Counted from the first letter of the stretch, positions 19,886 to 64,000 are shown. The stretch is DNA of 64,000 nt from an uncultured Candidatus Saccharibacteria bacterium (GCA_964359735.1 CAYHTZ010000006.1:3898-67897), one strand, 5' to 3'. Numbers and translations: made by a program. The notes: generated by a model from the letters alone, not told the origin.

Positions 19886-20044
19886 TTGATTCCTATCTGT
19901 TTCTCTGGCATACATAACATAATGACTCAGAGTGGCGGAGAAAATGAAAATGTCTTTTTGAAGTTTGGCGGGCCGAAGAAGAATCGCCAGAAGGGTACAC
20001 TGCGGAAGCGAAAGAGGAGGCGCGGAGGCAAGCCAGGCAAATAG

Positions 20045-20755: not shown

Positions 20756-20805
20756 GTGGTACTTAAGGCTCGACAGTCTAAGTCTCATATGTTCTCATTA
20801 TTTAT

Positions 20806-41607: not shown

Positions 41608-41622
41608 ACCTACCTGCTGATA

Positions 41623-42108: not shown

Positions 42109-42123
42109 TTGTAGGCGCTGGCG

Positions 42124-42759: not shown

Positions 42760-42775
42760 ACCGTGATGCTTCTTA

Positions 42776-43990
42776 TTGTATACTTTCGGTGTGAATTATG
42801 GAAAACTAGTGATTGTTTTTGCGGCCGGGCTGGCGATTTTTGGGCGAGCGCCCCAACTTTTTTTTGACCCGCGGCTGTGGGCGGAGGAAGTGACGGTGTA
42901 CTTGGAGCGGGGGCTCACCTGGCCGTGGTATCAAGCAATTTGGCTTCCCGATAGCGGCTACGTTAATTTGCTCGCGAATGGAGTTGGTATTCTGGAAGCG
43001 AGATTTGTGCCACTCGAATATGCTCCGGTTGTGCCACTCGTCGTTTCCTATCTCATCATGCTGCTGCCAATTGTGCTCGTGGTATGGAGCACAGGGGCTT
43101 GGCAGAATATTTGGAGTAAAGTCGCAGCTGCGGCGGTGATTGTGCTCACAGTGCCAAATCAGGAAGTGTGGCTGAATAGTATTACAAGCCAGTTTCACTT
43201 GAGTCTCGCTACCGGAATTATTTTGGCGCTGCCAGCGGTGGAATCTCTACGCCTGAAGTGGCTGCATCGCGCTGTTATTATTCTCGCCGGCCTGGGCGGC
43301 GCGGCTTCGATTCTACTGGCGCCATTGTTTATTTTTCGAGCTTGGAAGGATCGCTCCCGCGAGCGCGCTCTTCAGGCGGCAATACTGGCTGGTGTGGTGA
43401 TAGTGCAGCTTCTTATTTCGGCGCACTATGGATTGGGCAACCATGTGGTGAAGTTTATGCCCGGTATGTGGTGGCTCGTGATTATGGTGAAGAGTATGCT
43501 GTTGCCTTTCTTGGGAAGCGGAGGTGCTGCCGATCTCATCCCGCTATCTTGGCCGATGTACATTGGCGTGAGTGTGGCGGCCGTGAGTGGGGTAGTGGCG
43601 ATGTGTTGTGCGAAGGTAGCAGAAGCTCGCTGGCTCATAACATCCGCGCTCGCATTGATATTTTTTTCGCTCATTCTTTCGCTCGATGCACCAGCGAAAT
43701 TAGTGTCGCACTTGGTTGGTAACCGGTACTTCTTTGCGCCGAATGCCTTGCTGGGGTTAGCGTTGGTGGCCTGGATGTTTCATGTGCCATTTAAGAAAAA
43801 ATGGACGCGTGGGGTAGGAGTTTTTGTACTTATCTGGCTTGCAGTTGTAGGTGTGTGTGAATATTTCAATGCAGATCCGTTGTTTTTTGAAGGGCCGTCG
43901 TGGCGGACAGAGATTCACGCGTGGCGAGAGGATGCCTCGCATGTAGTTCGCGTCTGGCCGCGACCCTGGACGTGGGAAGTGCCACTTTAG
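42776..43990 (+). CDS. polytopic integral membrane protein of unknown function
   Basis: About 10 predicted TM segments. Confidence 0.5.
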   Translation: MYTFGVNYGKLVIVFAAGLAIFGRAPQLFFDPRLWAEEVTVYLERGLTWPWYQAIWLPDSGYVNLLANGVGILEARFVPLEYAPVVPLVVSYLIMLLPIVLVVWSTGAWQNIWSKVAAAAVIVLTVPNQEVWLNSITSQFHLSLATGIILALPAVESLRLKWLHRAVIILAGLGGAASILLAPLFIFRAWKDRSRERALQAAILAGVVIVQLLISAHYGLGNHVVKFMPGMWWLVIMVKSMLLPFLGSGGAADLIPLSWPMYIGVSVAAVSGVVAMCCAKVAEARWLITSALALIFFSLILSLDAPAKLVSHLVGNRYFFAPNALLGLALVAWMFHVPFKKKWTRGVGVFVLIWLAVVGVCEYFNADPLFFEGPSWRTEIHAWREDASHVVRVWPRPWTWEVPL

Positions 43991-43993
43991 GAA

Positions 43994-44767
43994 TTAGTTG
44001 TAGATGGCGGCGGTGCCGGAAATGTCGCCAGTGGTGAGCGTATTTTTCTTTACTTCGCCTTTGGAACCGTAGCCATACATAGTGTTGTCCACGTAGTCGG
44101 CGGTGTACATATCATCCAGGCCCAGCCAGTGGCCCAATTCGTGGTTCATAATATTTTCCGCATCGTAGGCAGTGGATTCGGCACACTGGGCTTGAGTGGA
44201 CCACCTCCAGGAGAATTTTTTGTTCATAATGGTGTCAACGTCAACTACTTGGCCGGTGGACGTGTAGTAGCGCACGTAGGTGACACCAAGCGCGGAGCCA
44301 GAGGTGCGGCCCCAAGCGATGACGTTTTTCCCGTCGTAGGCTTGGCGGGTGACAGATGTGTTTGGTCCTTGGGTGAATGTAACTTTACTGTTGGCGGCGG
44401 CGGTCCAGTCAGCGAATCCGTTTCCCACAATAGTAGGTAAGTTGCTGCCACCCACGGAAGACGGCACGCTGCTGGGGTTCAAATTGTATGTCCAGTTGGC
44501 GGGAAGCTCCCAGCCGGCGGCACCTACCAAGGCGGCAGAGTCGGGGTCAGCGAGGTTGCAGACAAGCGCGGAAGATTCGTCTCTGGTTGGCCGTTCTGGG
44601 TGTGCGAAAACACGCACGTGTATTCCAGGATGTTCGGGATCGGGATAGTCGCCACTCTCTGCAGGAATGTCAGAAGGTCTGCCGTGGGCGGCACTGGCGA
44701 CGTGTGCGACAGCGATAAGAGTAAAAGCAGCGATGATACTGGCGATGGTCAGGGCAGGTTTGCTCAT
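43994..44767 (-). CDS. secreted zinc metalloprotease (metzincin-like)
   Basis: HELGHWLGLDD (HExxHxxGxxD/H) motif; signal peptide. Confidence 0.7.
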   Translation of the reverse strand: MSKPALTIASIIAAFTLIAVAHVASAAHGRPSDIPAESGDYPDPEHPGIHVRVFAHPERPTRDESSALVCNLADPDSAALVGAAGWELPANWTYNLNPSSVPSSVGGSNLPTIVGNGFADWTAAANSKVTFTQGPNTSVTRQAYDGKNVIAWGRTSGSALGVTYVRYYTSTGQVVDVDTIMNKKFSWRWSTQAQCAESTAYDAENIMNHELGHWLGLDDMYTADYVDNTMYGYGSKGEVKKNTLTTGDISGTAAIYN

Positions 44768-47561: not shown

Positions 47562-47668
47562 AAGCAGGGTAGTTAAAAAGTAGCTTTGTAAGGCTGCTTT
47601 TTGTTGTTTTTTTGACTTTTTTCTTTGTCCATACTATTGTTGGCTGGACAATTAAAGTTGTCTCGAGT

Positions 47669-49546
47669 ATGAAATCCCTATTTAAATCACAAACTTCATA
47701 CGAGCTGATGGACCTTTTGGCGCGGCAGCCCAAGAAGAACTTCTTCTTAGCGGAGCTCGCGAAGACACTGCAGAAAGACAAGGCGAATGTGACGCGTGAG
47801 CTCGATAAACTGCACCAAGAAGGCATCGTACGCGTGGAAGAAAAAGGCGGGAAAAAGTTTTATGGTTTAAACCAGGGCTACGACGGCATTAAGGAGCTCG
47901 TCGGCTTGCTAGAGAAGCACCGCAGCAAAGATTTCGAGACGAAGTTCAAGCGCAGCTGGCTCCTCGCCGAAGACATTCCCAACATGGATCCATTTTTCAG
48001 CCAGATTTGGATGAACTGTTTCGTGAAGGAGTTTGCGGAGCCCAGCGGGCGGGCTTACGAATGTATTGCAGCCATTTACCAGGATTATCACCTCTGGTTC
48101 TACTTTGACGAGAAAGACGCGCACGCGGTGGCACAGAACATTGTCGATCGATTCGATGAGAATCCTGACTTCATGGATGAAGTGAACCGCGAAATTGTGC
48201 GGCACTCCGACGTTCTGCGCGATTTTGCCGAAAAGCTTCCCGAAGAGAAGTTGGAGAAGCTTTCAAATCAAAAGTTATGGCAGCTCTACCGTGACCATGA
48301 GGACACGCACAAGGCCTACTATCAGTGGGCATGGATACCAGTGGCGGTAGATATGTTTACGAATCACCTGACGGAATATGGTAAGAAATTGCTGCAGGAA
48401 ATAGAAGTGCCGGAGGACAAGGTGAATGAGTATTTAACACTGCTCACGCAACCTTCGCGGCCTTCCCCGATTAAGGAGGAACAAGATAGCTTAACTAAGA
48501 TTGCGATTGCGGTGCAGAAAGACTTCCAGCAACTGAAACTCTTCCAAGAACTTTTTCGCAAATTCAAGGAAGAGGATGTGAAGGAGTTCGGGCTTTACAC
48601 TCACAGCCCGGAATACGAAGCGCAATTTGAGAAGCGGGTGCAGGAGCTGGTGGAAACTATTCAGCCAAAGATATTGCAGGCGGTGCAAGAGGTGTACGCA
48701 CGATACTTTTACACCAAGTTTATTTTCACAGAAGAGCAAGGCGTGTACAGCTTCGAGCACTACTTAAAAGCACTGGTGCGCCTCGTGAACCGTACGCCGG
48801 ATTTAGGAAAAGAGTTTCAGGAAGAGGAGCAGGAACTCGCGAATATTATTCAAAAACGGGAAGAGCTTATCAGGAAGCTCAAATTAACCAAACGGCAGCG
48901 TCAAATATTTGATGCCTGGGGAGAATTCATGATAACGAAGATTTACCGCCGGTACGCCCAGCTCTTCGCGCTCTACAAAATGACAGCGATTGTGGAGGAA
49001 ATCGGCCGTAGACTGGGGCTTACCTTGAAACAGACTCGGTTCATGAAGACGAGCGAGGTGGAAGCGGGTCTCTCAGGCGGCAGTGTGGATATGGATGAGA
49101 TTAAGCGGCGGGTGGAGTTCTCTGTTTCTTATGCGGATAAGAACGGGCGGGTGTTTTACTCCGGCGCCGAAGCCAAGAAGGCGGCGGAACTTATCAAAGG
49201 CAAAGAACAGGATTTGAGTGGAATCAAGGAACTGAAAGGCCAGGTGGGTTGCCAGGGCATGGCCACGGGAACCGTGAAAGTAGTGAACGTGATTGAAGAT
49301 ATGAAGAAAATGGAGGAAGGGGATATTCTGGTGGCCATTTCTACACAGCCGGATCTTTTGCCGGCCATGAAAAAAGCGGCGGCGTTTGTAACGGAGCAGG
49401 GCGGGGTAACGTCCCACGCGGCCATTGTGGCGCGGGAAATGAACACGCCGTGCGTGATTGGCACCAAGATTGCCACGAAGGTTTTGAAGGATGGCATGAA
49501 AGTGGAAGTTGACGCCACGAAGGGAATTGTGAGAATTTTGGATTAG
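47669..49546 (+). CDS. winged-helix domain fused to a large helical domain and a C-terminal PEP-utilising-enzyme mobile (phospho-His) domain
   Basis: wHTH LMDLLARQPKKNFFLAELAKTL...; C-terminal GGVTSHAAIVAREMNTPCVIG signature. Confidence 0.7.
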   Translation: MKSLFKSQTSYELMDLLARQPKKNFFLAELAKTLQKDKANVTRELDKLHQEGIVRVEEKGGKKFYGLNQGYDGIKELVGLLEKHRSKDFETKFKRSWLLAEDIPNMDPFFSQIWMNCFVKEFAEPSGRAYECIAAIYQDYHLWFYFDEKDAHAVAQNIVDRFDENPDFMDEVNREIVRHSDVLRDFAEKLPEEKLEKLSNQKLWQLYRDHEDTHKAYYQWAWIPVAVDMFTNHLTEYGKKLLQEIEVPEDKVNEYLTLLTQPSRPSPIKEEQDSLTKIAIAVQKDFQQLKLFQELFRKFKEEDVKEFGLYTHSPEYEAQFEKRVQELVETIQPKILQAVQEVYARYFYTKFIFTEEQGVYSFEHYLKALVRLVNRTPDLGKEFQEEEQELANIIQKREELIRKLKLTKRQRQIFDAWGEFMITKIYRRYAQLFALYKMTAIVEEIGRRLGLTLKQTRFMKTSEVEAGLSGGSVDMDEIKRRVEFSVSYADKNGRVFYSGAEAKKAAELIKGKEQDLSGIKELKGQVGCQGMATGTVKVVNVIEDMKKMEEGDILVAISTQPDLLPAMKKAAAFVTEQGGVTSHAAIVAREMNTPCVIGTKIATKVLKDGMKVEVDATKGIVRILD

Positions 49547-49548: not shown

Positions 49549-50550
49549 ATGGCTTTCACGAAACCATTTGAGAAGTTGTCGAAAGAAGACGTGGGTATTG
49601 CCGGGGGCAAGGGAGCTTCCTTGGGGGAGATGACGCAGGCGGGTATTCCCGTGCCGCCTGGGTTTGTGGTGCTCTCAGGCGCATTTGAAGAATTTCTGAA
49701 GGCCACAGATTTGAATGTGGAACTGGATTCCATTCTGGATCAGGTGAATCACACGGTGATGCACGAGGTGGATGGCGCTTCAGGAAAAATTCAGGCGTTA
49801 ATTCTGAGCAAAGAAATGCCGGAGGCGATCGCGAAAGAAGTAGAAGCGGGGTTCAAGAAGTTAGGCGCCAAGTATGTAGCGGTGCGCTCGAGCGCTACGA
49901 GCGAAGATAGCGCTGACGCCGCCTGGGCGGGGCAGCTCGATAGCTATCTGAATACTACCCACGAAGTCTTGCTTGCTAATGTAAAGAGGTGCTGGGCTTC
50001 GCTGTTTACGCCGCGGGCGATTTTCTATCGATTCGAGAAGGGCTTTCACCCTTCGACAGGCTCAGGGCAAGCTGGCAAACGCATTTCGGTGGCCGTGGTA
50101 GTGCAGAAAATGATCCAAAGCGAAGTTTCTGGGATTGCTTTTTCCGTACACCCGGTGACGCAGGACCGCGATCAGATGATTATTGAATCAGGATTCGGGC
50201 TGGGGGAGGCCATTGTGCAAGGCTCCATTACGCCGGATAGTTACGTGATAGAAAAGAGCGCCAAGAATATTTTGGATAAAAATATAACAGTCCAAGAAAA
50301 AGGACTGTTTCGCAGGACCCAGCCTTCGCATGAAGCTTCGGCGGGCAAAGGCGCGGAGGTTAATGAATGGAGAGACATTCCAACTGATAAGGGTGAGATG
50401 CCTACGTTGACCGATGAAGAAGTTTTGGAGCTCTCAGATTTAATTATGAATATTGAAAAGCACTACGGCTTCCCGGTGGACGTGGAATGGGCGCGGGAGA
50501 AGGACAAGTTCTATATTGTACAATCCCGGCCGATTACAACCTTGAAGTAA
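49549..50550 (+). CDS. PPDK_N-type ATP-grasp nucleotide-binding domain protein (PEP synthase / rifampicin phosphotransferase N-domain)
   Basis: GIAGGKGASLGEM...VAVRSSATSEDS...VVVQKMI...VEWA motifs; 2-nt gap from the upstream gene. Confidence 0.8.
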   Translation: MAFTKPFEKLSKEDVGIAGGKGASLGEMTQAGIPVPPGFVVLSGAFEEFLKATDLNVELDSILDQVNHTVMHEVDGASGKIQALILSKEMPEAIAKEVEAGFKKLGAKYVAVRSSATSEDSADAAWAGQLDSYLNTTHEVLLANVKRCWASLFTPRAIFYRFEKGFHPSTGSGQAGKRISVAVVVQKMIQSEVSGIAFSVHPVTQDRDQMIIESGFGLGEAIVQGSITPDSYVIEKSAKNILDKNITVQEKGLFRRTQPSHEASAGKGAEVNEWRDIPTDKGEMPTLTDEEVLELSDLIMNIEKHYGFPVDVEWAREKDKFYIVQSRPITTLK

Positions 50551-52088: not shown

Positions 52089-53151
52089 GTTTCATGATTG
52101 CCTGATAGGCGTTGGGCTCTCCCGGGACGAAGTGCTTGGCTTGGGCGGCTTGCATTCGCTTTCGGGCTTCTTCGTTGTAGAGAAGCGTATCCACTGAAGT
52201 GGTTGTTTCAGAAAGCGGGGTGAGTTTCGTTTCCATAAAACACGTGCCAGCGCGAGCAAGCGGTGAGAGTTCCCAAATATGCTGTTCAGGAATCGTGGGA
52301 TGGCCGGGAATGTCGGCATTGGCAATGACGGGTATTTGAGCGGCGATAGCTTGAGCAAGCGTGCCCATGCCGTGATGCTGGAATACGAGATCGCTCGCGG
52401 CGAGCGCCCCATAAAAATCATCGATAAAGGTCTTTTCCGTAACCCAGGGGGGCACAGGTTGTGAAAGAGGTGGGCCAAGGTAGAGCACGCGAGTGTTTTT
52501 TCCTCGGCTGCGCAGCTGCCTCACCGAACCCAGCAGCTTTTCAATTACCCAGGGGCGGTGATCGGCACCTCGCCCGCTGGCATACAAGAAAATGAGTTTT
52601 TCATCTTCTTTCAGTTGAAATGTTTTTCGAATGTTCTCTCGAGTCTCTGAGCTCGGCGGCTCATAGGAAGGCACGAAGCCGACCGGTTCCAATTTTTCGC
52701 GAACAGATTTTTCGATGGTAAAATTCCCCCCGTTTTCTTCCAGGCCTAATTCGAAAATCTTAGGAGGAAAGCCGATCAAGTAGCGATCGGCCCAGGTGAC
52801 GAACGGAAACCCGGGGAACTTCGCTCTGTCGAAAAGCCAGAAGGTGTCGAAGCAGACGGTTAGGGGTTTGTTGGGTGGCGGTGTTTCGCGAAAGAGGTCG
52901 TTTTTACGCCAGATTTTGGAATTGCAGAGCACCAGCACATCCGGAGTGTGAAGCTGGAGCTGCGCCACAAGGCTTCCTGGGGTGGGTGTAAAGGCAATAG
53001 TGAATTTGTCGCGATCCGACTTGATAAAATTCATGTTTGTGGCCTGCACCACAGCCAGCGTAACCGCGAAGCCCTGTGTGTGCAGGTGCCGGCCTAAGGC
53101 TTGGGCGTGGGCCACCTCTCCTGGCCCCATGGCAGCGAGAAGACACTTCAT
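52066..53151 (-). CDS. GT-B fold glycosyltransferase (UDP-glycosyltransferase/MGT-like)
   Basis: C-terminal HHGMGT motif. Confidence 0.5.
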   Translation of the reverse strand: MKCLLAAMGPGEVAHAQALGRHLHTQGFAVTLAVVQATNMNFIKSDRDKFTIAFTPTPGSLVAQLQLHTPDVLVLCNSKIWRKNDLFRETPPPNKPLTVCFDTFWLFDRAKFPGFPFVTWADRYLIGFPPKIFELGLEENGGNFTIEKSVREKLEPVGFVPSYEPPSSETRENIRKTFQLKEDEKLIFLYASGRGADHRPWVIEKLLGSVRQLRSRGKNTRVLYLGPPLSQPVPPWVTEKTFIDDFYGALAASDLVFQHHGMGTLAQAIAAQIPVIANADIPGHPTIPEQHIWELSPLARAGTCFMETKLTPLSETTTSVDTLLYNEEARKRMQAAQAKHFVPGEPNAYQAIMKLMSAQPG

Positions 53152-54638
53152 TACAAGTACTTCTGAGCGAGATTTTCGCTGGTGGTGTTTTTGATAAACT
53201 CAATTCCCCAGCGGTAGATATTATTTTCTTCCAAAATATGCCGCATTTCGGCGTTGCGGTGTCGTCTTTCCTCTCGATTCATATTGAGAGCGTAATTGAG
53301 CGCATCGGCGCTGCCCTCGGTGTCGTAGGGATTAATGTGGATAGCAGAGTGCAGATCTTTGGCGGCTCCGGCGAAGCGGGAAAGTACCAAGGCACTTTTG
53401 TCAGGATCAGCGGCGATGGCGAATTCTTTAGCGACCAGATTCATACCATCGTCCAGAGGGCTGACCAAGCCGATATCAGCCAGGCGATAGTAGGCAAAGA
53501 GACGGTTACGCTCAATAGCATGTGTAATAAAGTGAATCGGCTGCCAGCCGTTGTGACTGTATTTTTCGTTAATGCGCTGGACGAGCTTGTGGACCTTGCG
53601 GTGGTAGGTTTTGTAGGCAGGAATAGCTAGGCGGGAGGGAACGCCAATCATGAGCTGGGTAATAAGGTTGCGGTATTGGGGATACTTTTCCAAGAATCGG
53701 TCTAGGATACGCAGCCACTCTACCATACCCTTGGTGTAATCAATGCGGTCGACGCTGAGCAGGAGGTACTTGCTCGTGATATTTAACCCCAAATCTTTTT
53801 TGAGAATGTCGCGCGTAATCGGCTGGCTGCGCTTGATAACGTCGTCAATTTCGCCGGTATCGATACCAGTAGGAAGGTGGACGAGTTTGGTGAGGCGTTT
53901 GCGGTACAGTACGGAGCGGGGCTCGGACTCTACGACCACGCCGATTTCTTCACGGAGTGAGTCAATAAAGTTATCAACGTGGTAGTAGCGATGAAAGCCA
54001 ACCAGATCAGCTCCCAACAAACCTTCTAGGATTTCGCGCCGCCAGGGGCAAATGCGGAAAATTTCCACGGTAGGCCAGGGAATGTGCCAAAAAATCCCGA
54101 TGGAAATATTTGCGTCCATTTCGCGAAGCATTTTGGGCAAGAGTGCCAAGTGGTAATCGTTAATCCAAACGAAAGCGTCCTTTCCTTTAATTTCCTGCAA
54201 GATCGATTTCGCAAAACGGTGGTTTACCTTCGCGTACGTTCGCCACCAGGAAGAGCGAAAGAGCGGCTTTACGAACACGCCGTGGCAAAGCGGCCATAGA
54301 GTTTGGTTGGAAAACCCGTAGTAGAACTGGTCCTGCTCTTTCTTAGTGAGGAAAATTCTTTTGAGTTGGTAGCTTTCTTCGCCGGGCGGAACGGCGACTT
54401 TCCCCTCGGCGTTTAGAACTTCTTTATCGGCTTCTCCGGCAGCGACAGCTACCATCAGCCCGCCGGTCTTGCGCAGGATGCTGTCCAGGAGAACGGTGAC
54501 TCCCCCAATCGAACGCTCAGCCCTAACTCCTTCCGGGGTGGGGTTATGAGTGTACGGTTCACGCTGAATGGCGGCGATGAATTGTCTTTCTTGAAGAGCT
54601 TCGTGTGCGAAACTTATGAGATCTTGAGCAGTTGTCAT
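53151..54638 (-). CDS. otsA: trehalose-6-phosphate synthase (GT20)
   Basis: VNDYHLALLP, HAIERNRLFAYYRLADIGLVSPLDDGMNLVAKEF. Confidence 0.9.
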   Translation of the reverse strand: MTTAQDLISFAHEALQERQFIAAIQREPYTHNPTPEGVRAERSIGGVTVLLDSILRKTGGLMVAVAAGEADKEVLNAEGKVAVPPGEESYQLKRIFLTKKEQDQFYYGFSNQTLWPLCHGVFVKPLFRSSWWRTYAKVNHRFAKSILQEIKGKDAFVWINDYHLALLPKMLREMDANISIGIFWHIPWPTVEIFRICPWRREILEGLLGADLVGFHRYYHVDNFIDSLREEIGVVVESEPRSVLYRKRLTKLVHLPTGIDTGEIDDVIKRSQPITRDILKKDLGLNITSKYLLLSVDRIDYTKGMVEWLRILDRFLEKYPQYRNLITQLMIGVPSRLAIPAYKTYHRKVHKLVQRINEKYSHNGWQPIHFITHAIERNRLFAYYRLADIGLVSPLDDGMNLVAKEFAIAADPDKSALVLSRFAGAAKDLHSAIHINPYDTEGSADALNYALNMNREERRHRNAEMRHILEENNIYRWGIEFIKNTTSENLAQKYL

Positions 54639-54673
54639 ACTTGATTAAAAACGTAAAAATAACCTCCCCACCT

Positions 54674-55807
54674 TTATTGGCCGAGCCAAGCCATCAGCGT
54701 CTGTGGTCCAACAGTGCCGGGGAAAGCTTCGTCTCCCAAAATAACTTGTCGGGATGTATTCGGAAACTGGTAGACGCCAGTTGTTATGGTATCATTATTT
54801 TGTCTTTTTGTCATCTGTTGACGAATGTTATGGAGTGTTTCAGATTGCAAGTCCTGATAGAGCATGGCTCCGCCGGGAATGAGAAACGTGGCCTGGCTTT
54901 TTGGTGCGCCATACAATCCCATTTCCAGATCGGCTGGGGAGTCACCCGCGATCAGCACTTCTATTTTTGCAGAGGGAGATAGATTCACGTGGAGTTGCCT
55001 GTAGACTCTGTTTACGCCGTCTACTTTTTTCATACCTTGGGGTTGGATGTACGTTTTGTATACCGGAGGGGTAGCAGCGAACGCATTTTCGTGTGTGAGA
55101 GTGAGTTGCTTTATGACTGCTGGCGTTGTTTCTTGGACTTGAACTTCGGCGAGGGCACTCGCGAACGTTTCTTGTTCATGGAGGCTCTCGAAGCACGTTT
55201 CGATTCGGTATTGAGGGAAGTACACGCCGGGCTTGCCTTGGCGGTAGTGTTCACCAACTTCGTTCGGGTTGAGTGAGCCAAAGCTTACCCCTCGAGTTTG
55301 CTCAAGACGGTGCAGAGTCTCCACAACCTGCGACCGCCACTCGTTCGGTGCGGCGCCGGCTTGGGCAAGGTAGCTTTCGTCCGCTGCGTAGCCGCCGGTT
55401 ACTTGCCGAACTGCAAGCTCTCCTCCCAGGGTTCCAATGATGGCATCAGGATCGCGAAGGCCGGTGAAAGCAGGAGTTTCCTCCGGGTAGCCAGGCTTCA
55501 GCTTGCCTGTGGCATAGGAGACTAGATTGGCGAGGGGGCGTTGCCGGATTTCTGCGGACGATTTTTCGCGCGCTTCCTTAGTGATGCACGTTTCCGAGGT
55601 GCGGGCAGTGACGAGCACGACGACAAAACCTCGGGTTTCCAAAAGATCCCGCAATGCTTGCTGCTCGGACGGAGTGCCCGAAAATGTTCCGTCGATATCA
55701 AGAAACGCTACCTGGAGGGGCTGGCCTCCTTGGTGGGGTTGGCGAAGTTTTTGGAGAGCTGAGCTATGTTGGTACACGGCGGCGGAATCTTCATGAGCGC
55801 TTGGCAT
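54674..55807 (-). CDS. HAD-superfamily IIB phosphatase, trehalose-6-phosphate phosphatase-like
   Basis: Motif I FLDIDGT, motif IV GDSPADLEM; adjacent to otsA. Confidence 0.6.
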   Translation of the reverse strand: MPSAHEDSAAVYQHSSALQKLRQPHQGGQPLQVAFLDIDGTFSGTPSEQQALRDLLETRGFVVVLVTARTSETCITKEAREKSSAEIRQRPLANLVSYATGKLKPGYPEETPAFTGLRDPDAIIGTLGGELAVRQVTGGYAADESYLAQAGAAPNEWRSQVVETLHRLEQTRGVSFGSLNPNEVGEHYRQGKPGVYFPQYRIETCFESLHEQETFASALAEVQVQETTPAVIKQLTLTHENAFAATPPVYKTYIQPQGMKKVDGVNRVYRQLHVNLSPSAKIEVLIAGDSPADLEMGLYGAPKSQATFLIPGGAMLYQDLQSETLHNIRQQMTKRQNNDTITTGVYQFPNTSRQVILGDEAFPGTVGPQTLMAWLGQ

Positions 55808-56915
55808 GGGAAGAACTTACAACCTCCTCGTAGACTTTCAGGACTTGCTGATACGTGGTTTCCCAATCGAATTTTTTCGCTTGGGCGTAGCCGGCTTCGA
55901 TGAGCTGCTGGCGCAGTGGTGGATCCTGAAACAGTTTTTCTACGGCCTCTCCAATGGCTTCTTCACTATCTGTTTCGACCAGAATTCCGGCGTCGCCCAC
56001 AATTTCCGGCAAGGAACTATTGTTAGCGACAATAGCCGGGCAGCCAGCAGCCATGGATTCTACGGGTGGTAGGCCAAAGCCTTCATATTTGCTGGGATAG
56101 ACGGAGCAGAAGGCATCTTTTAGAATAGCCCCCAGTTGTTCGTGAGATATGTAGCCCGTGAAGACGACACTCTCTTCAATCTTCAAATCTTGCACGAGCT
56201 TCTCGACGGCATGCCGATAGGGGTTGTCCAATTTTTCGCCAATGATTAACAGTCGAAAATCAGGATGACTCTGGCGAATTTTTACAAATGCCCGAACCAA
56301 GAGGTCAATATTTTTTCGAGCGTCGAAACCGCCGAAGTATATCAGGTATGGAGCATGTTCTTTAAAAGGATTTTCTCCATCCATCTTCAATTTTTCCGCA
56401 CCGTTATAAATGACTTGTGATTTATCTTTGGCCTCGGGGAAATATTTACTGACGTCTTTCTGACTGTTTTGAGAGACACAAATAATTTTCTTAGCGCGGT
56501 GGACAGCCAGGCCATAGGCGAGATAGCGGCAGAAATAGTCGGTTTGATTTTTGGGTAAGATGAGCGGAATAACATCGTGCACTGTGACGATACTAGGAAT
56601 AGATGTATCTGGAATGCCGTCGTTTTCCACAGCGTGGTAGAGATCCGGTTTTGTTTGCTCAAGAACGGTAGGAATGACTTCTTCTTCCCAAACGATTTTT
56701 CCGAGCTCCACATTCTTAAAGCGAGGTTTATCAATACTTACGTGGGTTACTTGCTTTGAGAATTGGGATGGGATTTCCCAAAATAATTCATCATATTGAG
56801 TGATAAGCACCACCTCATGTCCATCACGCAGCAGTCGATTCAGGATATTGATAAGGTGAATTCCCACGCCACTGGGTTTACGCTCAATCTCGCGGGCATC
56901 AAAGGCGATATGCAT
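55791..56915 (-). CDS. family 4 (GT-B) glycosyltransferase
   Basis: EGFGLPPVESMAAGCPAIV. Confidence 0.85.
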   Translation of the reverse strand: MHIAFDAREIERKPSGVGIHLINILNRLLRDGHEVVLITQYDELFWEIPSQFSKQVTHVSIDKPRFKNVELGKIVWEEEVIPTVLEQTKPDLYHAVENDGIPDTSIPSIVTVHDVIPLILPKNQTDYFCRYLAYGLAVHRAKKIICVSQNSQKDVSKYFPEAKDKSQVIYNGAEKLKMDGENPFKEHAPYLIYFGGFDARKNIDLLVRAFVKIRQSHPDFRLLIIGEKLDNPYRHAVEKLVQDLKIEESVVFTGYISHEQLGAILKDAFCSVYPSKYEGFGLPPVESMAAGCPAIVANNSSLPEIVGDAGILVETDSEEAIGEAVEKLFQDPPLRQQLIEAGYAQAKKFDWETTYQQVLKVYEEVVSSSHAKRS

Positions 56916-56917
56916 AT

Positions 56918-57679
56918 TTACGATCGATATCGATTCAAAATAAACTCCACTACAGCTGTTGTATTTATCTTCTTTTTGTCAGTTTCCATACGGGAGGTAG
57001 GGTGTTGGCGGTAATGATAGAGGAGGCCTGGGGTTTTTACTGCCTTTCCGGTTTTAATAGCACGGATGAGCCAATCGAGATCGCCGGCGTAGGGAAGGCT
57101 CTCATCCCAGTATCCAGTTTTGGTGAGGAACTCGCGACGGAACATAACCGAGAGGTGATGAACAGGATACTCATGGGTGCGCTCACTGTGAGGTAAGAAA
57201 AAGTCGGCGAGCATTCGTTCGGCTGGCCAATCTTCAGCGGGAATAGTTTTGATAACGTTACCCTCTGGGTCAATTTTATCGATGTCGCCGTGAGTAAAAT
57301 CTGATTCCGAGTGATTTTCGAGCGTGGCAACTCGTTTCGCGAGAGTGTCGGCAGGCCAGAGGTCGTCGCTGTGGATCCACGTTATATATTTCCCTTGCGC
57401 GGCACGCAGCCCTAAGTTTGTCGTAGGGTATTCACCTCGGTTAATTTGGTGAATAGAGATAATTCGTTCATCTTCGGCGAGTTTCTTCTCAATAATTTCT
57501 TGTGTGTTATCTGAGCTTCCGTCGTTGATAACAATACATTCGAAGTCGGAGAATGACTGGCTCAACACCGTATCAAGAGCTGCAGGCAAATATTTTTCTC
57601 GATTGTAGGTAGGGACGATAATTGAGACGAGCGGACTCCTCGTTGGAAGTAGCTTGAAGGGTTGTGAAGACGGCGGCAT
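56918..57679 (-). CDS. family 2 glycosyltransferase
   Basis: SIIVPTYNRE...VINDGSSD. Confidence 0.85.
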   Translation of the reverse strand: MPPSSQPFKLLPTRSPLVSIIVPTYNREKYLPAALDTVLSQSFSDFECIVINDGSSDNTQEIIEKKLAEDERIISIHQINRGEYPTTNLGLRAAQGKYITWIHSDDLWPADTLAKRVATLENHSESDFTHGDIDKIDPEGNVIKTIPAEDWPAERMLADFFLPHSERTHEYPVHHLSVMFRREFLTKTGYWDESLPYAGDLDWLIRAIKTGKAVKTPGLLYHYRQHPTSRMETDKKKINTTAVVEFILNRYRS

Positions 57680-57694
57680 ACGACGAGCGTATCA

Positions 57695-58837
57695 TCAGCC
57701 TTGTGATTGCTCAATAATAGCCTTGTATACGTAGGCACTGGGCCGCGGCTTGCGCTCAAGGGTTTGGTAATTTACCTCCACTAGACCGTAGCGAGGGGTG
57801 AAGCCTAAATCCCACTCGAAATTGTCTAAGAGCGACCAGTGCAAGTAGCCGAGCACGTGAGCTCCCTGAGCCTGAGCAACTTCCACGGCGCGAAGGTGGC
57901 TGCGAATAAAGTTGGCGCGGAGTTTATCTTGGGAATCGGCCAGCCCGTTCTCAGTTACATAGATCGGCAATTGAAAACTTCCCAGGGAAAGTAAGATCTC
58001 CGTTAAGCCTTCGGGGTAGATGGGCGCACCCGTATCGGAACGCAGATTATGAGGATTTTTATTATGTGGGGGTGAGTAATAATTGACTCCGATAAAATCG
58101 TGCGCGCCGGTGGTGGCCTGAAAAAACATTGTATTCCACCACCACTTACGAAGTGGGGTTGTGGTGGTTGTAAAAACGTTAGCAATACCTACTTGCGCTT
58201 GGGGAAAGTGCTGATGAATTATTTTGTATGCTAGCTTGTGGGCTTGAGCAAACATGCTTCTCATTCGGAGAACTCGGGTAGTGCGCTTCCAGAGAGAGGC
58301 AGGAGTGGGCGATTTTTCGGCGACTGGTGGCCAGGCTCCCTTCCAACCTACTTGGTTGAGATACACTACAGGCTCGTTTAGGGTTATCCAAAAATCAACT
58401 AGGTCCCCGAGTTCGTTAGCAATTTTGTCGGTGTATTCTGCGAAGAGAATGGGGGTATGCGGGTTTTCCCAGCCACCCTGCTGCGACACCCAAATAGGGT
58501 TCGTGAAATGGTGCAGAGTTACGAACGATTTTAATCCTAAGCGGCGCAGTTCAGTTAGCACATCGCGATAGTGGGCAATCTCGCGCTGGTTCCAGGTGTT
58601 CGGAGCCGGTTGAATTCTACTCCACTCAATAGAAAGGCGATGCGCGGTATGGCCGAGCGATTTGGCGAGCGCAAAATCTTCTCGGAAGCGGTGGTAGTGA
58701 TCGGTGGCCTTGCTGGAGTGCTCCATTCCTGGTGTGGCTTTTTCCCATGCCCACCAATCGTTGTGGACATTGCCGCCCTCCGTTTGATAGGCGCTGCCCC
58801 CAGCGCCATAGAGAAATTTCTTCTCCCTCATAGTCAT
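57695..58837 (-). CDS. GH1 beta-glucosidase
   Basis: LNEP and TENG catalytic motifs, YGAGGSAYQTEG N-terminus. Confidence 0.85.
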   Translation of the reverse strand: MTMREKKFLYGAGGSAYQTEGGNVHNDWWAWEKATPGMEHSSKATDHYHRFREDFALAKSLGHTAHRLSIEWSRIQPAPNTWNQREIAHYRDVLTELRRLGLKSFVTLHHFTNPIWVSQQGGWENPHTPILFAEYTDKIANELGDLVDFWITLNEPVVYLNQVGWKGAWPPVAEKSPTPASLWKRTTRVLRMRSMFAQAHKLAYKIIHQHFPQAQVGIANVFTTTTTPLRKWWWNTMFFQATTGAHDFIGVNYYSPPHNKNPHNLRSDTGAPIYPEGLTEILLSLGSFQLPIYVTENGLADSQDKLRANFIRSHLRAVEVAQAQGAHVLGYLHWSLLDNFEWDLGFTPRYGLVEVNYQTLERKPRPSAYVYKAIIEQSQG

Positions 58838-58905
58838 AGTATGCCACGAGTTTTGTGAACGTCGTGTTCGCACTCACAATAAAGTATCAGTATAATCAAT
58901 TAATG

Positions 58906-60054
58906 AAGTTTGGAGTCATTGGGTCAATAGCCAAACCTACTCATTCTGAAGCTATGGGAGGAATCGAGGTATGGACTGCTCTTTTTTTGTTAGAATCGAT
59001 TAAGCGAGGGCATGTTTTTGACTTGTTTGCTCTGAAAGGGTCAATAGAAGTAACAAATCAAATCAGGCTCATAGAAGTACTTAAAAAGGGCCTAGATGTG
59101 ATTAAGAATAATCCATTTTTTAAGAGTAAGAGCAAGCTTTCGGGTGAACATAATGGCATGTTACTGATGGATGTGTCTTTCTCCCGAATGATGGTTCTTC
59201 TTAAGGAGAAGCAGCAAGACTACGATATTGTTATTAATAATTCGGCTAGCCCGCTGTTTACAGTTAACTGGGATCTTTATCAGAAACCTCTTTTGAATAT
59301 AGGTCACTTTTCTGCGGCTGAGCCGTACGTAAGTTACTTTGACTATTTCCCATTGCCGCCTCACTGTTTCTTTGTGTTTCCTAGTAGGCGTGAGTATGAA
59401 TTAGCAGCTAGGGTACCGGACCAGCAAAAATTCCATATTCCTCATGGTATAGATATCAGCAAAATTCCCTTTGAAGCAGGTACAGGCAAAAACATGCTAT
59501 GGGTGGGAAGATTAGATCCAGTGGCGCGTAAAGGTGCTCCTGAAGCGATTGCTATTTCTAATAAAATGGAAATACCTATCAATGTCTATACTTATATTGA
59601 GGATACTCATTATTTTGATACCGCAGTTAAACCACTATTCACCGCATATACCCACTTTCAGACAAATATTCCTCGCACAGAATATTTCAAAGATGCCAAG
59701 CTCTTTTTATTCCCTTTGCAATGGGAAGAGCCTTTTGGCTTCACTATTGTTGAGGCAATGGCTAGTGGCACGCCCGTGGTTGCCTATGCGAAAGGAGCAA
59801 TCCCAGAGATCATCAAAGATGGTGAAACAGGTTTCATTGTTAATGCCTCAGAAGATGATCGACGAGGAAACTGGATGATCACAAAAACGGGGGAGGAAGG
59901 TATGTTTGAGGCTGTTGAGAGAATTTATTCACTGCCTTTGGAGCGTTATCAAGCAATGCGAAGAGCATGCCGCGAGCACGTTGAAAGAAGCTTTACGGTT
60001 GAGAAGATGGTTGATGGCTATGAGAAAGCCTATTCAGCTATTCTCGAAAGATAG
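58906..60054 (+). CDS. family 4 glycosyltransferase (lower GC)
   Basis: EPFGFTIVEAMASGTPVV. Confidence 0.8.
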   Translation, partial: KFGVIGSIAKPTHSEAMGGIEVWTALFLLESIKRGHVFDLFALKGSIEVTNQIRLIEVLKKGLDVIKNNPFFKSKSKLSGEHNGMLLMDVSFSRMMVLLKEKQQDYDIVINNSASPLFTVNWDLYQKPLLNIGHFSAAEPYVSYFDYFPLPPHCFFVFPSRREYELAARVPDQQKFHIPHGIDISKIPFEAGTGKNMLWVGRLDPVARKGAPEAIAISNKMEIPINVYTYIEDTHYFDTAVKPLFTAYTHFQTNIPRTEYFKDAKLFLFPLQWEEPFGFTIVEAMASGTPVVAYAKGAIPEIIKDGETGFIVNASEDDRRGNWMITKTGEEGMFEAVERIYSLPLERYQAMRRACREHVERSFTVEKMVDGYEKAYSAILER

Positions 60055-60069
60055 GCGGGGTAGTGCAAC

Positions 60070-61251
60070 TTACTGAGTAAGTAGCTGGGCAAGCTTCACG
60101 AACACGGCGTTGGTCCAGCCAAAACCCTTCTGGGTGGGGTAGCGATCAGCTTTGCCGATTTCCCCCGTGACCACGTTGTATTTTTCCCAGAGGTGGCCGG
60201 TTTTCTTGAGTAGGCGATGATTCAGATCAAGCCACTTTTCGGCAATGCGTTTGACATCTTCCTTGAAGCCATAGTTTAAGAGCCCTTGGACTACAATCCA
60301 CTGTTGGTGTGGCCAGCCGTTGGGGTAATCGTGCTGATTGAAGTTTTTGGAGAGCCCGTTTTTTTGGGTATTGGCGAGGCCGTGAGCGTATTCGAATTTC
60401 TTCAGGTTGCGGCGCACTTTTTCAGCTTGAGCAAGAGTGGCCAACTTGGCCCAGAGGGGATGGAACCCAGCGGTGGAGTAGAAAGCACCGCGGCGGTTGT
60501 GAGCATAATCGTAATCAAAGAAGAAGCCTTTGCGGCTGTTCCACATGAGTTTGTTCATGGTGGCCTGCCGCTGCTTTGCCTGCTTGACATAGTGGTCCCG
60601 TTTTTCGCCGTTACCCAACAGGCCATAGATATCGCTAAGATCTGTCTCGTACTTATACAGCAAGCAGTTGAGGTCTACCGGCAAGAAGTCGAGACAGCGC
60701 TCGTCGAAGCGGCTGGTCATGTCCCAGCCGGATTCGTGCTCGGCGGTGAGGTGCATGACATAGTGATCGCAGTAGCGGGAGAGTCCTTGGAAAACGAGGT
60801 GTTTTTCGGCCCGCGCTGCTTTCTTATCCATCCAATAATTCTCCAATTCACTCTCCGCGACTTCGGCGGCTTGCGCTAACCAGTTTTTATCTTGAGTGGC
60901 ATTGAATATTTCGCGGATCATTGAGGTTAAAAATGGCGGCTGAGACATGCCGAGGTTATAGAAGCGGTTGCGTGATGGGATGATGCCGAAACGCCGGTAC
61001 AAGTAAAGAAAGTTGTCTACCATGCCCTTCGCCAGCTCGCCTTTGCCAGAAGCAACGAGTCCGAGAATAATGGTGTAGCTGTCCCAATAAAATTGATCAC
61101 TGGCGTAGTTACCTTCAGCGGGGGATGGTGCTATGAATGGATTCGGCAGACCGATGATGATGCCCTTGTCTTGAGGGTGCGAGAAAGTCAGCTTCGGCCA
61201 GTAGTCCTCGATGTAGGCTAGTGTCGAGTTGTAGTCAGGTAAAGGACTCAT
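60070..61251 (-). CDS. trehalase (GH37)
   Basis: QFYWDSY and GFGWTN signatures; start trimmed to MSPLPDY to avoid overlap with zwf. Confidence 0.8.
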   Translation of the reverse strand: MSPLPDYNSTLAYIEDYWPKLTFSHPQDKGIIIGLPNPFIAPSPAEGNYASDQFYWDSYTIILGLVASGKGELAKGMVDNFLYLYRRFGIIPSRNRFYNLGMSQPPFLTSMIREIFNATQDKNWLAQAAEVAESELENYWMDKKAARAEKHLVFQGLSRYCDHYVMHLTAEHESGWDMTSRFDERCLDFLPVDLNCLLYKYETDLSDIYGLLGNGEKRDHYVKQAKQRQATMNKLMWNSRKGFFFDYDYAHNRRGAFYSTAGFHPLWAKLATLAQAEKVRRNLKKFEYAHGLANTQKNGLSKNFNQHDYPNGWPHQQWIVVQGLLNYGFKEDVKRIAEKWLDLNHRLLKKTGHLWEKYNVVTGEIGKADRYPTQKGFGWTNAVFVKLAQLLTQ

Positions 61252-61330
61252 GCTGGCGCAATGATAATCGCTGGTTGGCGGATTGGCAATATGCCGTACC
61301 CACAATGTGATAACAAGGTATGATACATAC

Positions 61331-63733
61331 ATGGCGAAGCTGGTTGAAGAAATTTTCCCAACTATTTTTGTGATACTGGGAGCCACTGGCGATTTAGCCA
61401 AGAAAAAGCTCATTCCGGCGCTGTGGCAGCTGTACAAGGCTGGGGAGCTGCCGCCGCTGTTGCAGATTGTGGGGCTTTCCAAGGACACGCTGAGCGATGA
61501 GGAGTACCGCGATTGGGCGAGAGACGTGATTCAGCAAAGCGGTACCCAGAAGGCAGGCAGCAGCCGGCAACTGCAAGAGTTTTGCCAGAGGCTTGTGTAT
61601 GAGACGGGCCAGTTTGAAGATATGGTCGCGTATAAGCGTTTAGGGGAAAGGATGGGCCGAGTAGACGACGAGTGGCGGCTGTGCACCAACAAGCTGTTTT
61701 ACATCGCAGCTTCGCCTATCCACTACCAGACTATTTTTCAAAATTTAGCGGCCTCGCGCCTGACGGAGCCGTGCAGCCCGGAGGAAGGCTGGACGCGCGT
61801 GATGGTAGAGAAGCCGTTTGGGAAGGATTTAGCTACGGCGCAGGAGTTAGATACGATGCTCGGGCGGCTCTTTCGCGAAGAACAAATTTACCGGGTGGAC
61901 CATTACCTGGGGAAAGATACGGTGCGGAACTTACTTACCTTTCGCTTTTCGAACTCATTCTTAGAGCCGGCTTGGAACGCGCGAGGCATCGACCACATTC
62001 ACATTCGGGTTTTTGAGAAAGACGGAGTGGAAGAGCGGGGGCAATTTTACGACGGCATAGGGGCACTGCGGGATGTCGGGCAAAATCACATGCTGCAGCT
62101 CTTGGCGCTTATCGCCATGGAGAACCCGGGAACGTTTGACGCTGACTCTATTCGCCGCGAGCGCGCCAAGGTTTTGGAAATGCTGGAAGGTATGGACCGC
62201 CAAGATATTGTCCGCCAGACAGTCCGCGCTCAGTACGATGGCTATAGGCAGATTCTGGGAGTGGCACCGGATTCAAATACGGAAACTTATTTTTCCATTC
62301 AGACGTACCTGAAGTCGGCACGCTGGGCGGGAGTGCCTATCTGGTTAAAATCTGGGAAACGCATGCCGGAGGCGGCCGTGGAAGTAGCTGTGCATTTCCG
62401 GCATCAGGTGCCGTGCCTCTGTCCGCCGGGAAAGCACTATACCAATGTGCTTACCTACCGCATACAGCCGCATGAGGGAGTAACCACCTCGTTTTGGGTG
62501 AAGCGGCCGGGAGCAGATATGCAAATCGAAAAGCAAGATTTCTCCTTTGATTACAAAGCTGCGTACGAGGGAAAGTTTATGAATGAGTACATGAAGCTTC
62601 TGATTGATATGTTCCGGGGCGACCAAACATTGTTTGTGAGCACGGATGAGATTATGGCGGAGTGGAAATTTGTGGACCCCATTTTGCATGCGTGGGGGGA
62701 AAATGTAGTGCCGCTCGAGACGTATGAACCGGGGACGGTGCCCAAGGCTGCCCACGATATGGACGGCATGAAGATGCCGCGTAAGCGCATTGGTTATATT
62801 GGCTTGGGTAAGATGGGGTTCAATATGGTGCAGCGTCTCTTAGACCATCACTGGGAAGTAGTGGCTAGCGACCCAAACCAGGAAGCGCGCGAGAAGGCGC
62901 AGGCAGCGGGAGCGAAGGCGGTAGAAACAGCGGCGGATGTGGTAAAGACCCTTCGACCGTCTCGACAGGCTCGAGGTAAACACGCTCAGGGTGATCCAGA
63001 TCAGAAACTCCTGATCTGGATCATGGTGCCACACAATGTTGTGGATGAGGTATTGAAAGAAATTGCGCCGCACTTAGAGAAGGGTGATGCTGTGATTGAC
63101 GGAGGCAACTCGAATTACAAAGAGTCAGTGCGCCGAGGAGAAATGCTGGCTGAGAAAGGGATTGAGTACTTAGACATTGGCGTGAGCGGAGGCCCGGAGG
63201 GAGCACGCAAGGGAGCGTGTCTGATGATCGGAGGCAAGCGCGAGGAATACAAAAAGCACGTGGGGCTCTTTAGCGACCTGGCCACAGCGGGAGGATACGA
63301 GTACGTGGGGAAATCTGGCGCGGGGCACTTTGTGAAAATGGTTCACAACGGCATTGAGTACGGCATGATGCAGGCTTTAGGAGAAGGATTCCATATTCTG
63401 AAGGCAGGGGAGGAATTTGACCTCAACTTGGAAGCAGTGGCCAATGTGTATAACCATGGCAGCGTTATCGAGTCGCGCTTAGTAGAATGGCTGAAACGCG
63501 CCTACGACCAGTATGGGCCGGACCTGGCCGATATTTCCGGATCAGTGGAGCATAGCGGCGAGGGATTATGGACGGTGGAGGCTGCGCGGGAACTGAGTGT
63601 GCCCGTAAAAGTGATCGAGGATGCGTTGCAATTCCGGGTGGAATCACAAAAAAATCCTAGCTACACTGGGCAGGTAGTTTCTGCACTGCGCAACCAATTC
63701 GGTGGACACAATGTGAAGAAGAGTAAGCAGTAG
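61331..63733 (+). CDS. zwf: apparent fusion of glucose-6-phosphate dehydrogenase (N-terminal, about 480 aa) and short-form 6-phosphogluconate dehydrogenase (C-terminal, about 320 aa)
   Basis: G6PD ILGATGDLAKKKL and RVDHYLGKD; then MKMPRKRIGYIGLGKMGFNMV (6PGDH NAD-binding) in the same frame with no intervening stop. Confidence 0.75.
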   Translation: MAKLVEEIFPTIFVILGATGDLAKKKLIPALWQLYKAGELPPLLQIVGLSKDTLSDEEYRDWARDVIQQSGTQKAGSSRQLQEFCQRLVYETGQFEDMVAYKRLGERMGRVDDEWRLCTNKLFYIAASPIHYQTIFQNLAASRLTEPCSPEEGWTRVMVEKPFGKDLATAQELDTMLGRLFREEQIYRVDHYLGKDTVRNLLTFRFSNSFLEPAWNARGIDHIHIRVFEKDGVEERGQFYDGIGALRDVGQNHMLQLLALIAMENPGTFDADSIRRERAKVLEMLEGMDRQDIVRQTVRAQYDGYRQILGVAPDSNTETYFSIQTYLKSARWAGVPIWLKSGKRMPEAAVEVAVHFRHQVPCLCPPGKHYTNVLTYRIQPHEGVTTSFWVKRPGADMQIEKQDFSFDYKAAYEGKFMNEYMKLLIDMFRGDQTLFVSTDEIMAEWKFVDPILHAWGENVVPLETYEPGTVPKAAHDMDGMKMPRKRIGYIGLGKMGFNMVQRLLDHHWEVVASDPNQEAREKAQAAGAKAVETAADVVKTLRPSRQARGKHAQGDPDQKLLIWIMVPHNVVDEVLKEIAPHLEKGDAVIDGGNSNYKESVRRGEMLAEKGIEYLDIGVSGGPEGARKGACLMIGGKREEYKKHVGLFSDLATAGGYEYVGKSGAGHFVKMVHNGIEYGMMQALGEGFHILKAGEEFDLNLEAVANVYNHGSVIESRLVEWLKRAYDQYGPDLADISGSVEHSGEGLWTVEAARELSVPVKVIEDALQFRVESQKNPSYTGQVVSALRNQFGGHNVKKSKQ
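62993..63022. repeat. perfect 12-bp inverted repeat GATCCAGATCAG-AAACTC-CTGATCTGGATC inside the gnd-like domain
   Basis: Preceded by imperfect palindrome CCTTCGACCGTCTCGACAGGCTCGAGG (62949-62976); together they encode an about 15-20 aa insert before the conserved LIWIMVP strand. Confidence 0.45.
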
Positions 63734-63752
63734 ACAGTATGTAGAACACAGT

Positions 63753-64000
63753 ATGGAGCTAAAGAATAAAACAATATTGATCACGGGGGGGGCGAGGGTG
63801 GGGCAGTTTGTAGCGGAGGAGCTTTTGGCGGCGGGAGCTAAGCTCGCTATGACCTACGTGAGAGACAAGAGCGAAGTGCATACAAAAGCGAAGGGGTATC
63901 AGCTTGATGTGACGAGCGAGGAGAGCGTTCAAGAGTTGCTACCGGCAGTGGAAAAAGATCTTGGCCAAGTAGATGGTCTCGTGAACATGATCTCAATTTT
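63753..64000 (+). CDS. short-chain dehydrogenase/reductase (N-terminal part, runs off the window)
   Basis: TGG..G.G Rossmann motif ILITGGARVGQ. Confidence 0.6.
   Translation, partial: MELKNKTILITGGARVGQFVAEELLAAGAKLAMTYVRDKSEVHTKAKGYQLDVTSEESVQELLPAVEKDLGQVDGLVNMISI

Follow-up and report, generated by a model that had tools for sequence, protein, structure and literature searches.

[quoted passage not shown] In these G6PD::6PGL proteins the partner is the lactonase of step 2, which has the Glucosamine_iso fold. A fusion to 6-phosphogluconate dehydrogenase (6PGDH), the enzyme of step 3, has been reported for a single diatom, Phaeodactylum tricornutum, as a cytosolic G6PDH/6PGDH protein (protein 54663; Kroth et al. 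2008, PMC2173943; Stover et al. 2011, PMC3148214). [quoted passage not shown] The statement of the original prediction that G6PD is known fused to lactonase, and not to 6PGDH, is outdated by these reports. No biochemical or structural study of a bacterial G6PD-6PGDH fusion was found in the literature, which otherwise yielded engineered operons or the diatom case, and a fused chain is absent from the PDB.

6PGDH is also described as a free-standing enzyme. The short-chain tetrameric 6PGDHs of Gluconobacter oxydans (10gw/6xeq) and M. tuberculosis (Gnd2; 8ihe/9ijb) comprise about 300 aa and possess a single C-terminal hemi-domain. In the tetrameric G. oxydans enzyme, the C-terminal RX2FGXH motif, which is contributed by the adjacent subunit, binds 6-phosphogluconate (bioRxiv 10.64898/2026.01.21.700892).

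The DNA analysed here, referred to as the window, is a stretch of 64 kb of bacterial chromosome, which carries RecA, SSB, ribosomal protein S6, YchF and MurJ and encodes many proteins without a Pfam family. A G6PD-6PGDH fusion gene is located close to its end, in the following arrangement:

60070..61263, minus strand: divergent trehalase gene (Pfam Trehalase, 288 bits), an arrangement also found in locus L010
61264..61330, no strand: divergent intergenic region of 67 bp between trehalase and fusion gene, from sequence
61331..63733, plus strand: Zwf-Gnd fusion ORF, 800 aa plus TAG stop (ORF listing, Pfam/NCBIfam matches, at least 120 homologues)
61370..62758, plus strand: G6PD half, aa 14-476 (Pfam and NCBIfam)
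62759..62785, plus strand: inter-domain linker, aa 477-485, in a stretch variable from about aa 469, with M477, M480 and M482
62786..63724, plus strand: short-chain 6PGDH half, aa 486-798 (TIGR00872 and PRK09599 end to end)
62951..63010, plus strand: insertion specific to the lineage, in a loop of the 6PGDH Rossmann domain, aa 541-560 (120-protein alignment)
63689..63709, plus strand: C-terminal RX2FGXH substrate-binding motif (R787, F790, G791, H793)
63764..64000, plus strand: start of a gene for a short-chain dehydrogenase (SDR), which continues beyond the window, from sequence

Taken together, sequence comparison and a predicted structure point to a genuine bifunctional oxidative-PPP enzyme that is conserved in Patescibacteria, and we put the probability of this reading at roughly 0.88. 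It agrees with the original prediction on the single in-frame G6PD-6PGDH ORF and on one of the two alternatives offered there, namely that steps 1 and 3 of the oxidative PPP are genuinely fused: the ORF is continuous, both domains are full-length and score above curated cut-offs, both sets of motifs are intact and the architecture is family-wide. The window protein shares with the candidate-phyla and Diapherotrites G6pd-Pgd proteins (PMC11237513) the same two enzymes on one polypeptide and has the host group CPR in common with them. Like the Phaeodactylum fusion, with which it was compared by description only, it combines PPP steps 1 and 3, is devoid of a lactonase domain (no match to PF01182, Glucosamine_iso, in the fusion ORF at E <= 0.01) and has a short spacer (8-25 aa in diatom fusions); the diatom protein, in contrast, is eukaryotic. 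It resembles the G6PD::6PGL fusions in joining G6PD to an oxidative PPP enzyme and differs from them in its partner, which is 6PGDH; the protein P0240, by contrast, contains both a G6PD and a lactonase domain.

The open frame extends without interruption over 61283..63733 (+), and no stop codon or frame change is found in the window sequence between the two halves. Counted from a TTG at 61283 the product would have 816 aa, counted from the ATG at 61331 it has 800 aa and opens with MAKLVEE. Since the homologue alignments start at query residue 9-10, equivalent to residue 7-8 of the homologues themselves, ATG 61331 is the likely start codon. The original prediction had mixed the two versions: its coordinates, 61331-63733, are those of the ATG start and stand, whereas its length of 816 aa needs the TTG. 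The peptide MKMPRKRIGYIGLGKMGFNMV is located at aa 480-500, from nt 62768, and the peptide MKMPRKRIGYIGLGKMG at aa 480-496 of the fusion protein. An exact-sequence look-up of the window protein gave no record, and its nearest relative (P0001) is 76% identical.

The N-terminal half matches the Pfam domains G6PD_N (aa 14-200, 191 bits) and G6PD_C (aa 202-476, 295.5 bits) as well as the NCBIfam model zwf (TIGR00871) with 505.5 bits against a cut-off of 400.6, covering profile positions 3-475 of 486. It contains the motifs GATGDLA (17-23), EKPFG (160-164), RVDHYLGKD (188-196) and RDVGQNH (247-253). In an alignment of 120 fused homologues, GxTGDL, EKPFG, RxDHYLGK and RDxGQNH are invariant or nearly so, and residues D190, H191, K195 and H253 are invariant. 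An AlphaFold2 model of the monomer, built on 66 family members, reached a mean pLDDT of 89.3 and a pTM of 0.81. A Foldseek search of the PDB with the N-terminal half of this model returned human and L. mesenteroides G6PD with E = 5.6e-46 and an rmsd of 2.2-2.5 Å; the target-normalised TM-score against 1dpg and 5ukw is 0.88-0.90. By profile, motifs and predicted fold, the N-terminal half is a complete glucose-6-phosphate dehydrogenase.

The C-terminal half is covered by the Pfam domains NAD_binding_2 (aa 486-652) and 6PGD (aa 665-775). Only positions 1-116 of the 290 positions of the 6PGD profile are matched, which corresponds to the first hemi-domain. The models gnd_rel (TIGR00872; 344 bits, cut-off 297.2) and PRK09599 (356 bits, cut-off 271) are matched end to end (profile positions 2-298 of 299). 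Characteristic motifs are GLGKMG (491-496), D514 at the end of β2 and the block GHFVKMVHNGIEY (665-677). GLGKMG and the catalytic residues K669, N673 and E676 within this block are invariant in all 120 fused homologues, and the same holds true for the motif R787-NQ-F790-G791-G-H793, which sits 7 residues from the C-terminus. Among solved chains, the short-chain 6PGDHs 10gw/6xeq and 8ihe come closest, and like them the half has a catalytic K/N/E block and an RX2FGXH motif in its tail; unlike the fusion, these enzymes are free-standing. Judged by these features, a complete short-chain 6-phosphogluconate dehydrogenase makes up the C-terminal half. It appears highly improbable that one of the halves is dead or repurposed, e.g. 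that the C-terminal half is a β-hydroxyacid dehydrogenase with a different substrate or has a regulatory role as a sensor of NAD(P). The half does match the models of tartronate-semialdehyde reductase and HIBADH, which belong to related families, but these weak matches of 51-71 bits fall far below the respective cut-offs of 290-400, and an assignment to either enzyme was rejected in favour of the 6PGDH models. Moreover, the invariance of K669, N673, E676 and the 6-phosphogluconate-binding RX2FGXH motif argues against a loss of function, as does that of the four G6PD residues.

The size and spread of the family bear on whether the fusion is an artefact or a recent event. A homologue search in a space of 5.8 billion proteins gave at least 120 matches. 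With one exception, these are 48-76% identical to the window protein, contain the same four Pfam domains and have a length of 753-842 aa; query coverage is 97-100% for the 119 full-length matches. Over its whole length, the window protein can be aligned with these CPR fusions and nothing substantive differs, apart from its new sequence, the loop insertion specific to its lineage and K51-D52 in the cofactor pocket of the G6PD half. The same G6PD-then-6PGDH architecture was found in at least 148 distinct proteins of 34-76% identity. Among 50%-identity representatives, an exhaustive search recovered about 12-13 full-length fused clusters, the lowest with 34% identity (P0181, 730 aa), and the matches below these clusters are ordinary G6PDs of about 470 aa. 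A 200-aa junction query from a single sequence, searched by exact peptide words, retrieved 9 loci, most of them unfused, which is too few to gauge the taxonomic spread. All named carriers belong to the Patescibacteria/CPR, on the side of both the Parcubacteria (Andersen-, Wildermuth-, Harrison- and Sungbacteria, 'Minisyncoccia') and the Microgenomates (Gottesman- and Woesebacteria, one of them on a 929-kb contig). One fused gene (L016) is located on a contig with 68% GC, where the neighbouring genes gave no taxonomic signal. The window protein is accordingly placed, by sequence, as a new member of a known and widespread CPR family.

The short match (P0004) lies on a separately assembled groundwater contig, L099 (ENA ERZ1292627, 'Hain_H51_01um'), with a coverage of 3.2x. 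This contig is 99.87% identical to positions 61636-64000 of the window without gaps, and the junction is identical. It also carries the downstream adh_short gene in complete form (237 aa). At this low coverage, L099 contains a premature stop within the 6PGDH half (K636-stop variant), so that not every assembled or population variant is intact.

Since at least 148 fused proteins with identities down to 34% occur across Parcubacteria and Microgenomates, sequence evidence indicates that the fusion is neither an assembly artefact nor the result of a recent stop-codon loss. The opposite view, that two separate genes were joined by an assembly or sequencing error, or by a zwf stop codon lost very recently in one genome, could refer to split relatives that keep the order zwf-then-gnd, in frame in L019 and with a 60-nt spacer in L025, and to the Met residues at the window's junction. 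However, the fused homologues stem from many independent assemblies, the same junction is present in L099, the junction Met is not conserved and the linker is ordinary coding sequence rather than an intergenic relic with a Shine-Dalgarno sequence (SD). Family conservation thus effectively refutes this explanation, including the recent loss of the zwf stop that had been considered at first. In the comparison with zwf and gnd of relatives, proposed as a check in the original prediction, the genes are separate in some relatives (L019, L025) and fused in the family at large.

In the alignment of 120 fused proteins, a conserved Y-x-x-G segment (Y465) closes the G6PD half and the 6PGDH half begins with K-x-I-G-Y-I-G-L-G-K-M-G. 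The linker-equivalent segment in between spans 17-32 aa and is not conserved in sequence. A Met within the last 12 residues ahead of the Rossmann strand is present in only 18 of the 120 proteins and absent in 102. Due to this scarcity, M477, M480 and M482 are read from the alignment as lineage noise rather than as a retained start codon, which contradicts the earlier claim that the 6PGDH N-terminus keeps its own Met, and the junction Met residues were rejected as a sign of recent fusion. In the AlphaFold2 model, low confidence is confined to residues 1-4, the linker (pLDDT ~61, residues 471-480) and loop 541-560 (~66), and the linker is predicted to be flexible. A flexible linker would be compatible with a polypeptide that ends up as two enzymes, either by proteolysis of the linker or by internal initiation at M480/M482. 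Such an outcome is improbable, even though in-frame ATGs occur at the junction in the window's lineage and some diatom metabolic fusions may be cleaved post-translationally (Kroth et al. 2008, PMC2173943). Most family members are without the internal Met, no strong SD precedes it in the window, no promoter-like site is located nearby, and the fact that the fusion has been kept for a long time across CPR speaks for selection on the covalent link as such.

With regard to the origin of the fusion, 80 loci from metagenomes, obtained by searching with the family profile, were sorted by gene arrangement. Two of them are fused. About 25-30 loci belong to high-GC bacteria with a separate short gnd immediately upstream of zwf, the reverse of the fusion order and the arrangement of most other bacteria sampled. 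A few low-GC loci display zwf followed by gnd as split genes. In L019, the sequence runs zwf-TAG-GAGAAAGTT-ATG-gnd in one reading frame, with the genes 12 nt apart and an AGGAG Shine-Dalgarno sequence overlapping the zwf stop; by sequence, a single substitution at this locus would give a fusion. Both halves of L025 are closest to fused proteins, yet they are split by the AT-rich spacer. Stand-alone CPR G6PDs without gnd nearby were found as well (L008, L015). In view of the split zwf-gnd relatives, with L019 in frame, the fusion may plausibly have arisen long ago from a zwf-gnd operon that lost the stop codon between its genes. Neighbour-joining trees of each half (50 bootstrap replicates) did not separate fused from unfused sequences in a stable way and are too unstable to choose among one origin, several origins and a fission at a later time, including fission versus an ancestral state in L025.

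In the window, the fusion gene is embedded in a carbohydrate block with a GH1 glycosidase, a GT20 trehalose-6-phosphate synthase and several glycosyltransferases. Between them, the window and L010, the locus of the 76% identical relative, have trehalase and phosphoglucomutase (PGM) as neighbours; L010 displays the same arrangement as the window, with TrmB and PGM in addition. A scan for promoters and terminators gave nothing beyond the shuffled expectation, including the trehalase-fusion intergenic region. Genes for pgl, tkt, tal and rpi are absent from the 64-kb window. The earlier observation that no lactonase gene is adjacent was borne out, with none in the 61 kb annotated upstream and the window ending 267 nt past the fusion stop; pgl is also absent within 10 kb downstream of the fusion in L010. 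Carriers that are more distantly related have other neighbours. In L011, pgl is located 4 nt downstream of the fusion, in the company of a TrxR-like gene, AhpC, Grx and DsbD. Further neighbours are rpiB, Grx, DsbD and Redoxin in L014, transketolase (tkt) and pgi in L012, class I aldolase, MsrA and MsrB in L096, Grx, VKOR and PGI in L097, and a ROK glucokinase in L098. These sugar-phosphate and thiol-redox neighbours are in keeping with an oxidative-PPP module from which thiol-redox systems receive pentose phosphates and reducing power.

As a bifunctional oxidative-PPP enzyme, the protein would act at both ends of the oxidative branch. The N-terminal G6PD would oxidise glucose-6-phosphate to 6-phosphogluconolactone, and the C-terminal short-chain 6PGDH would convert 6-phosphogluconate to ribulose-5-phosphate by oxidative decarboxylation. 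Because the fusion protein has no lactonase domain, the middle step would presumably proceed spontaneously or be carried out by a separate Pgl encoded elsewhere. The order G6PD-then-6PGDH keeps the 6PGDH C-terminus free, and by analogy with the published structure the RX2FGXH helix of this free tail would complete the active site of the neighbouring subunit; we infer that the order is fixed because the tail must stay free. In a very small genome, the likely gain would be that both NAD(P)H-producing steps are co-localised and expressed at a constant 1:1 ratio. Judging from the gene neighbourhoods, the products would serve as a source of pentose phosphates and of reducing power in thiol-redox defence.

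Which cofactor is used may be approached through residues of the two nucleotide pockets. In the 6PGDH half, Asp514 ends β2, a classic NAD-type signature, and the name of the NCBIfam equivalog TIGR00872 implies NAD+ preference. At this position, 89 of the 120 family members carry Asp and 30 carry Asn, the latter as Asn-Arg, Asn-Lys or Asn-Gln, with 27 of them being NADP-type Asn-Arg. In the G6PD half, Thr19 and Lys51-Asp52 occupy the positions of K18 and R50 of E. coli G6PD, which have been shown experimentally to be NADP+ determinants; dual-specificity enzymes typically have Thr at position 18. The pockets of the two halves co-vary. An Asn-Arg 6PGDH half is combined with Arg-Arg in the G6PD half in 27 of 30 cases, and an acidic residue at position 52 of G6PD, present in nine proteins (eight Lys-Asp, one Arg-Asp), is in each of them accompanied by an Asp-type 6PGDH; both are raw counts that include related sequences. 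The acidic 2'-phosphate pockets in the sub-lineage of the window protein (K51-D52 in G6PD, D514 in 6PGDH) tentatively suggest NAD+ or dual use rather than strict NADP+ use. The combination of Thr19 and Lys51 resembles that of dual-specificity enzymes, which counts against reading a cofactor preference from sequence.

A more far-reaching proposal is conceivable, in which the G6PD dimer/tetramer interface and the 6PGDH tetramer interface together build a higher-order particle, the cofactor pockets co-evolve as a unit, and the enzyme runs a lactonase-independent NAD+-linked shunt as a main NADH-yielding route of glucose catabolism in ultra-small CPR cells. This combination seems unlikely.

In public databases, CPR fusions are annotated either as 'G6PD' or as '6PGDH (NAD+-dependent)', and G6PD::6PGL fusions are likewise labelled 'G6PD' only. 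Due to such one-enzyme labels, one step can be overlooked when the completeness of a pathway is called. The outcome for this window is mainly a corrected annotation. The family as a whole represents a natural single-chain enzyme, predicted to yield two NAD(P)H per glucose-6-phosphate, that is widespread in an uncultivated bacterial radiation. It could act as a compact cofactor-regeneration catalyst, offers a clean case for asking what selects fusions of non-adjacent steps and provides a useful marker in the reconstruction of CPR central metabolism.

Within the Rossmann domain of the 6PGDH half, loop 541-560 is a family-wide hot spot for insertions and deletions, and the insertion of the window protein is only partly common to its 76% identical relative P0001. 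A perfect 13-nt inverted repeat with a 6-nt loop (62992..63023) covers the end of this insertion and the conserved IWIM strand.

Within the coding sequence of the G6PD-6PGDH fusion, the 6PGDH half carries a perfect inverted repeat, which spans the edge of the lineage-specific insertion:

62992-63004 / 63011-63023: inverted repeat with 13-nt arms TGATCCAGATCAG ... CTGATCTGGATCA, separated by a 6-nt loop

One of the arms is situated inside the insertion and the other inside the conserved IWIM strand; a template-switch or hairpin-mediated event may have given rise to the insertion.

Relative to the window, L099, a near-identical groundwater contig assembled at 3.2x coverage, carries two substitutions in the 6PGDH half (window 63233-63238 against L099 1631-1636): position 63233 changes from G to T, and position 63236 from A to T. 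They convert the invariant Gly635 to Cys and Lys636 to a TAG stop, which breaks the 6PGDH half of L099 into two called genes. This variant could represent either a low-coverage error or a true inactivating change.

Located 5' of the fusion is a trehalose-related block (window 53151-61263) comprising a GT20 trehalose-6-P synthase, several GT4/GT2/GT1 glycosyltransferases, a GH1 glycosidase and a trehalase, which is also kept in L010, the locus of the 76%-identical relative. Adjoining the fusion gene of L010 and two further relatives is a TrmB-family sugar-responsive transcription regulator:

L010 12470-13162: TrmB-family regulator
L013 8187-8960: TrmB-family regulator
L017 7123-7845: TrmB-family regulator

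This regulator, recurrent in three relatives, could control the fusion gene. The window, whose end lies 267 nt 3' of the fusion, shows no TrmB-family regulator. L016 5-2443 also encodes a fused G6PD-6PGDH; this protein has 812 aa and reaches 47% identity over its best segment. Its contig has a GC content of 68%, unusually high for the group, and FG-GAP, cadherin-like and G5-domain surface proteins are encoded next to it.

Many metagenome contigs of high GC content, 55-72% (L026, L027, L035, L042, L048, L051, L053, L062, L072, L081, L084, L094, L095 and others), carry a separate short-chain gnd directly 5' of zwf, the two genes frequently overlapping or abutting. The order of this conserved pair is opposite to that of the CPR fusion, in which G6PD precedes 6PGDH. 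A different partner is found in the database proteins P0240 and P0291 (768 aa), encoded on contigs of prokaryotic size (322-534 kb), where G6PD is followed by a C-terminal 6-phosphogluconolactonase (Glucosamine_iso, 223 bits); these are apparently the bacterial equivalent of the G6PD::6PGL fusions known from eukaryotes. P0138 (868 aa), whose G6PD is closely related to the fused family, is extended at its C-terminus by about 420 aa without a match to any Pfam family.

Elsewhere in the window, positions 40124-44767 encode a run of probable secreted proteins matching CBM96, TGF-beta propeptide and matrixin (M10) peptidase, families which are odd in a small-genome bacterium, the matches being weak. 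Further along the window are two PPDK/PEP-synthase-like genes:

47612-49546: protein of 644 aa, MarR-like HTH at the N-terminus, PEP-utilizer mobile domain at the C-terminus
49549-50550: separate PPDK_N (ATP-grasp) protein, directly after the former

In L012, the locus of another relative, four PEP-utilizer paralogues stand in tandem (17374-22409), and the split or expanded arrangement of these genes in the window and L012 is unusual.
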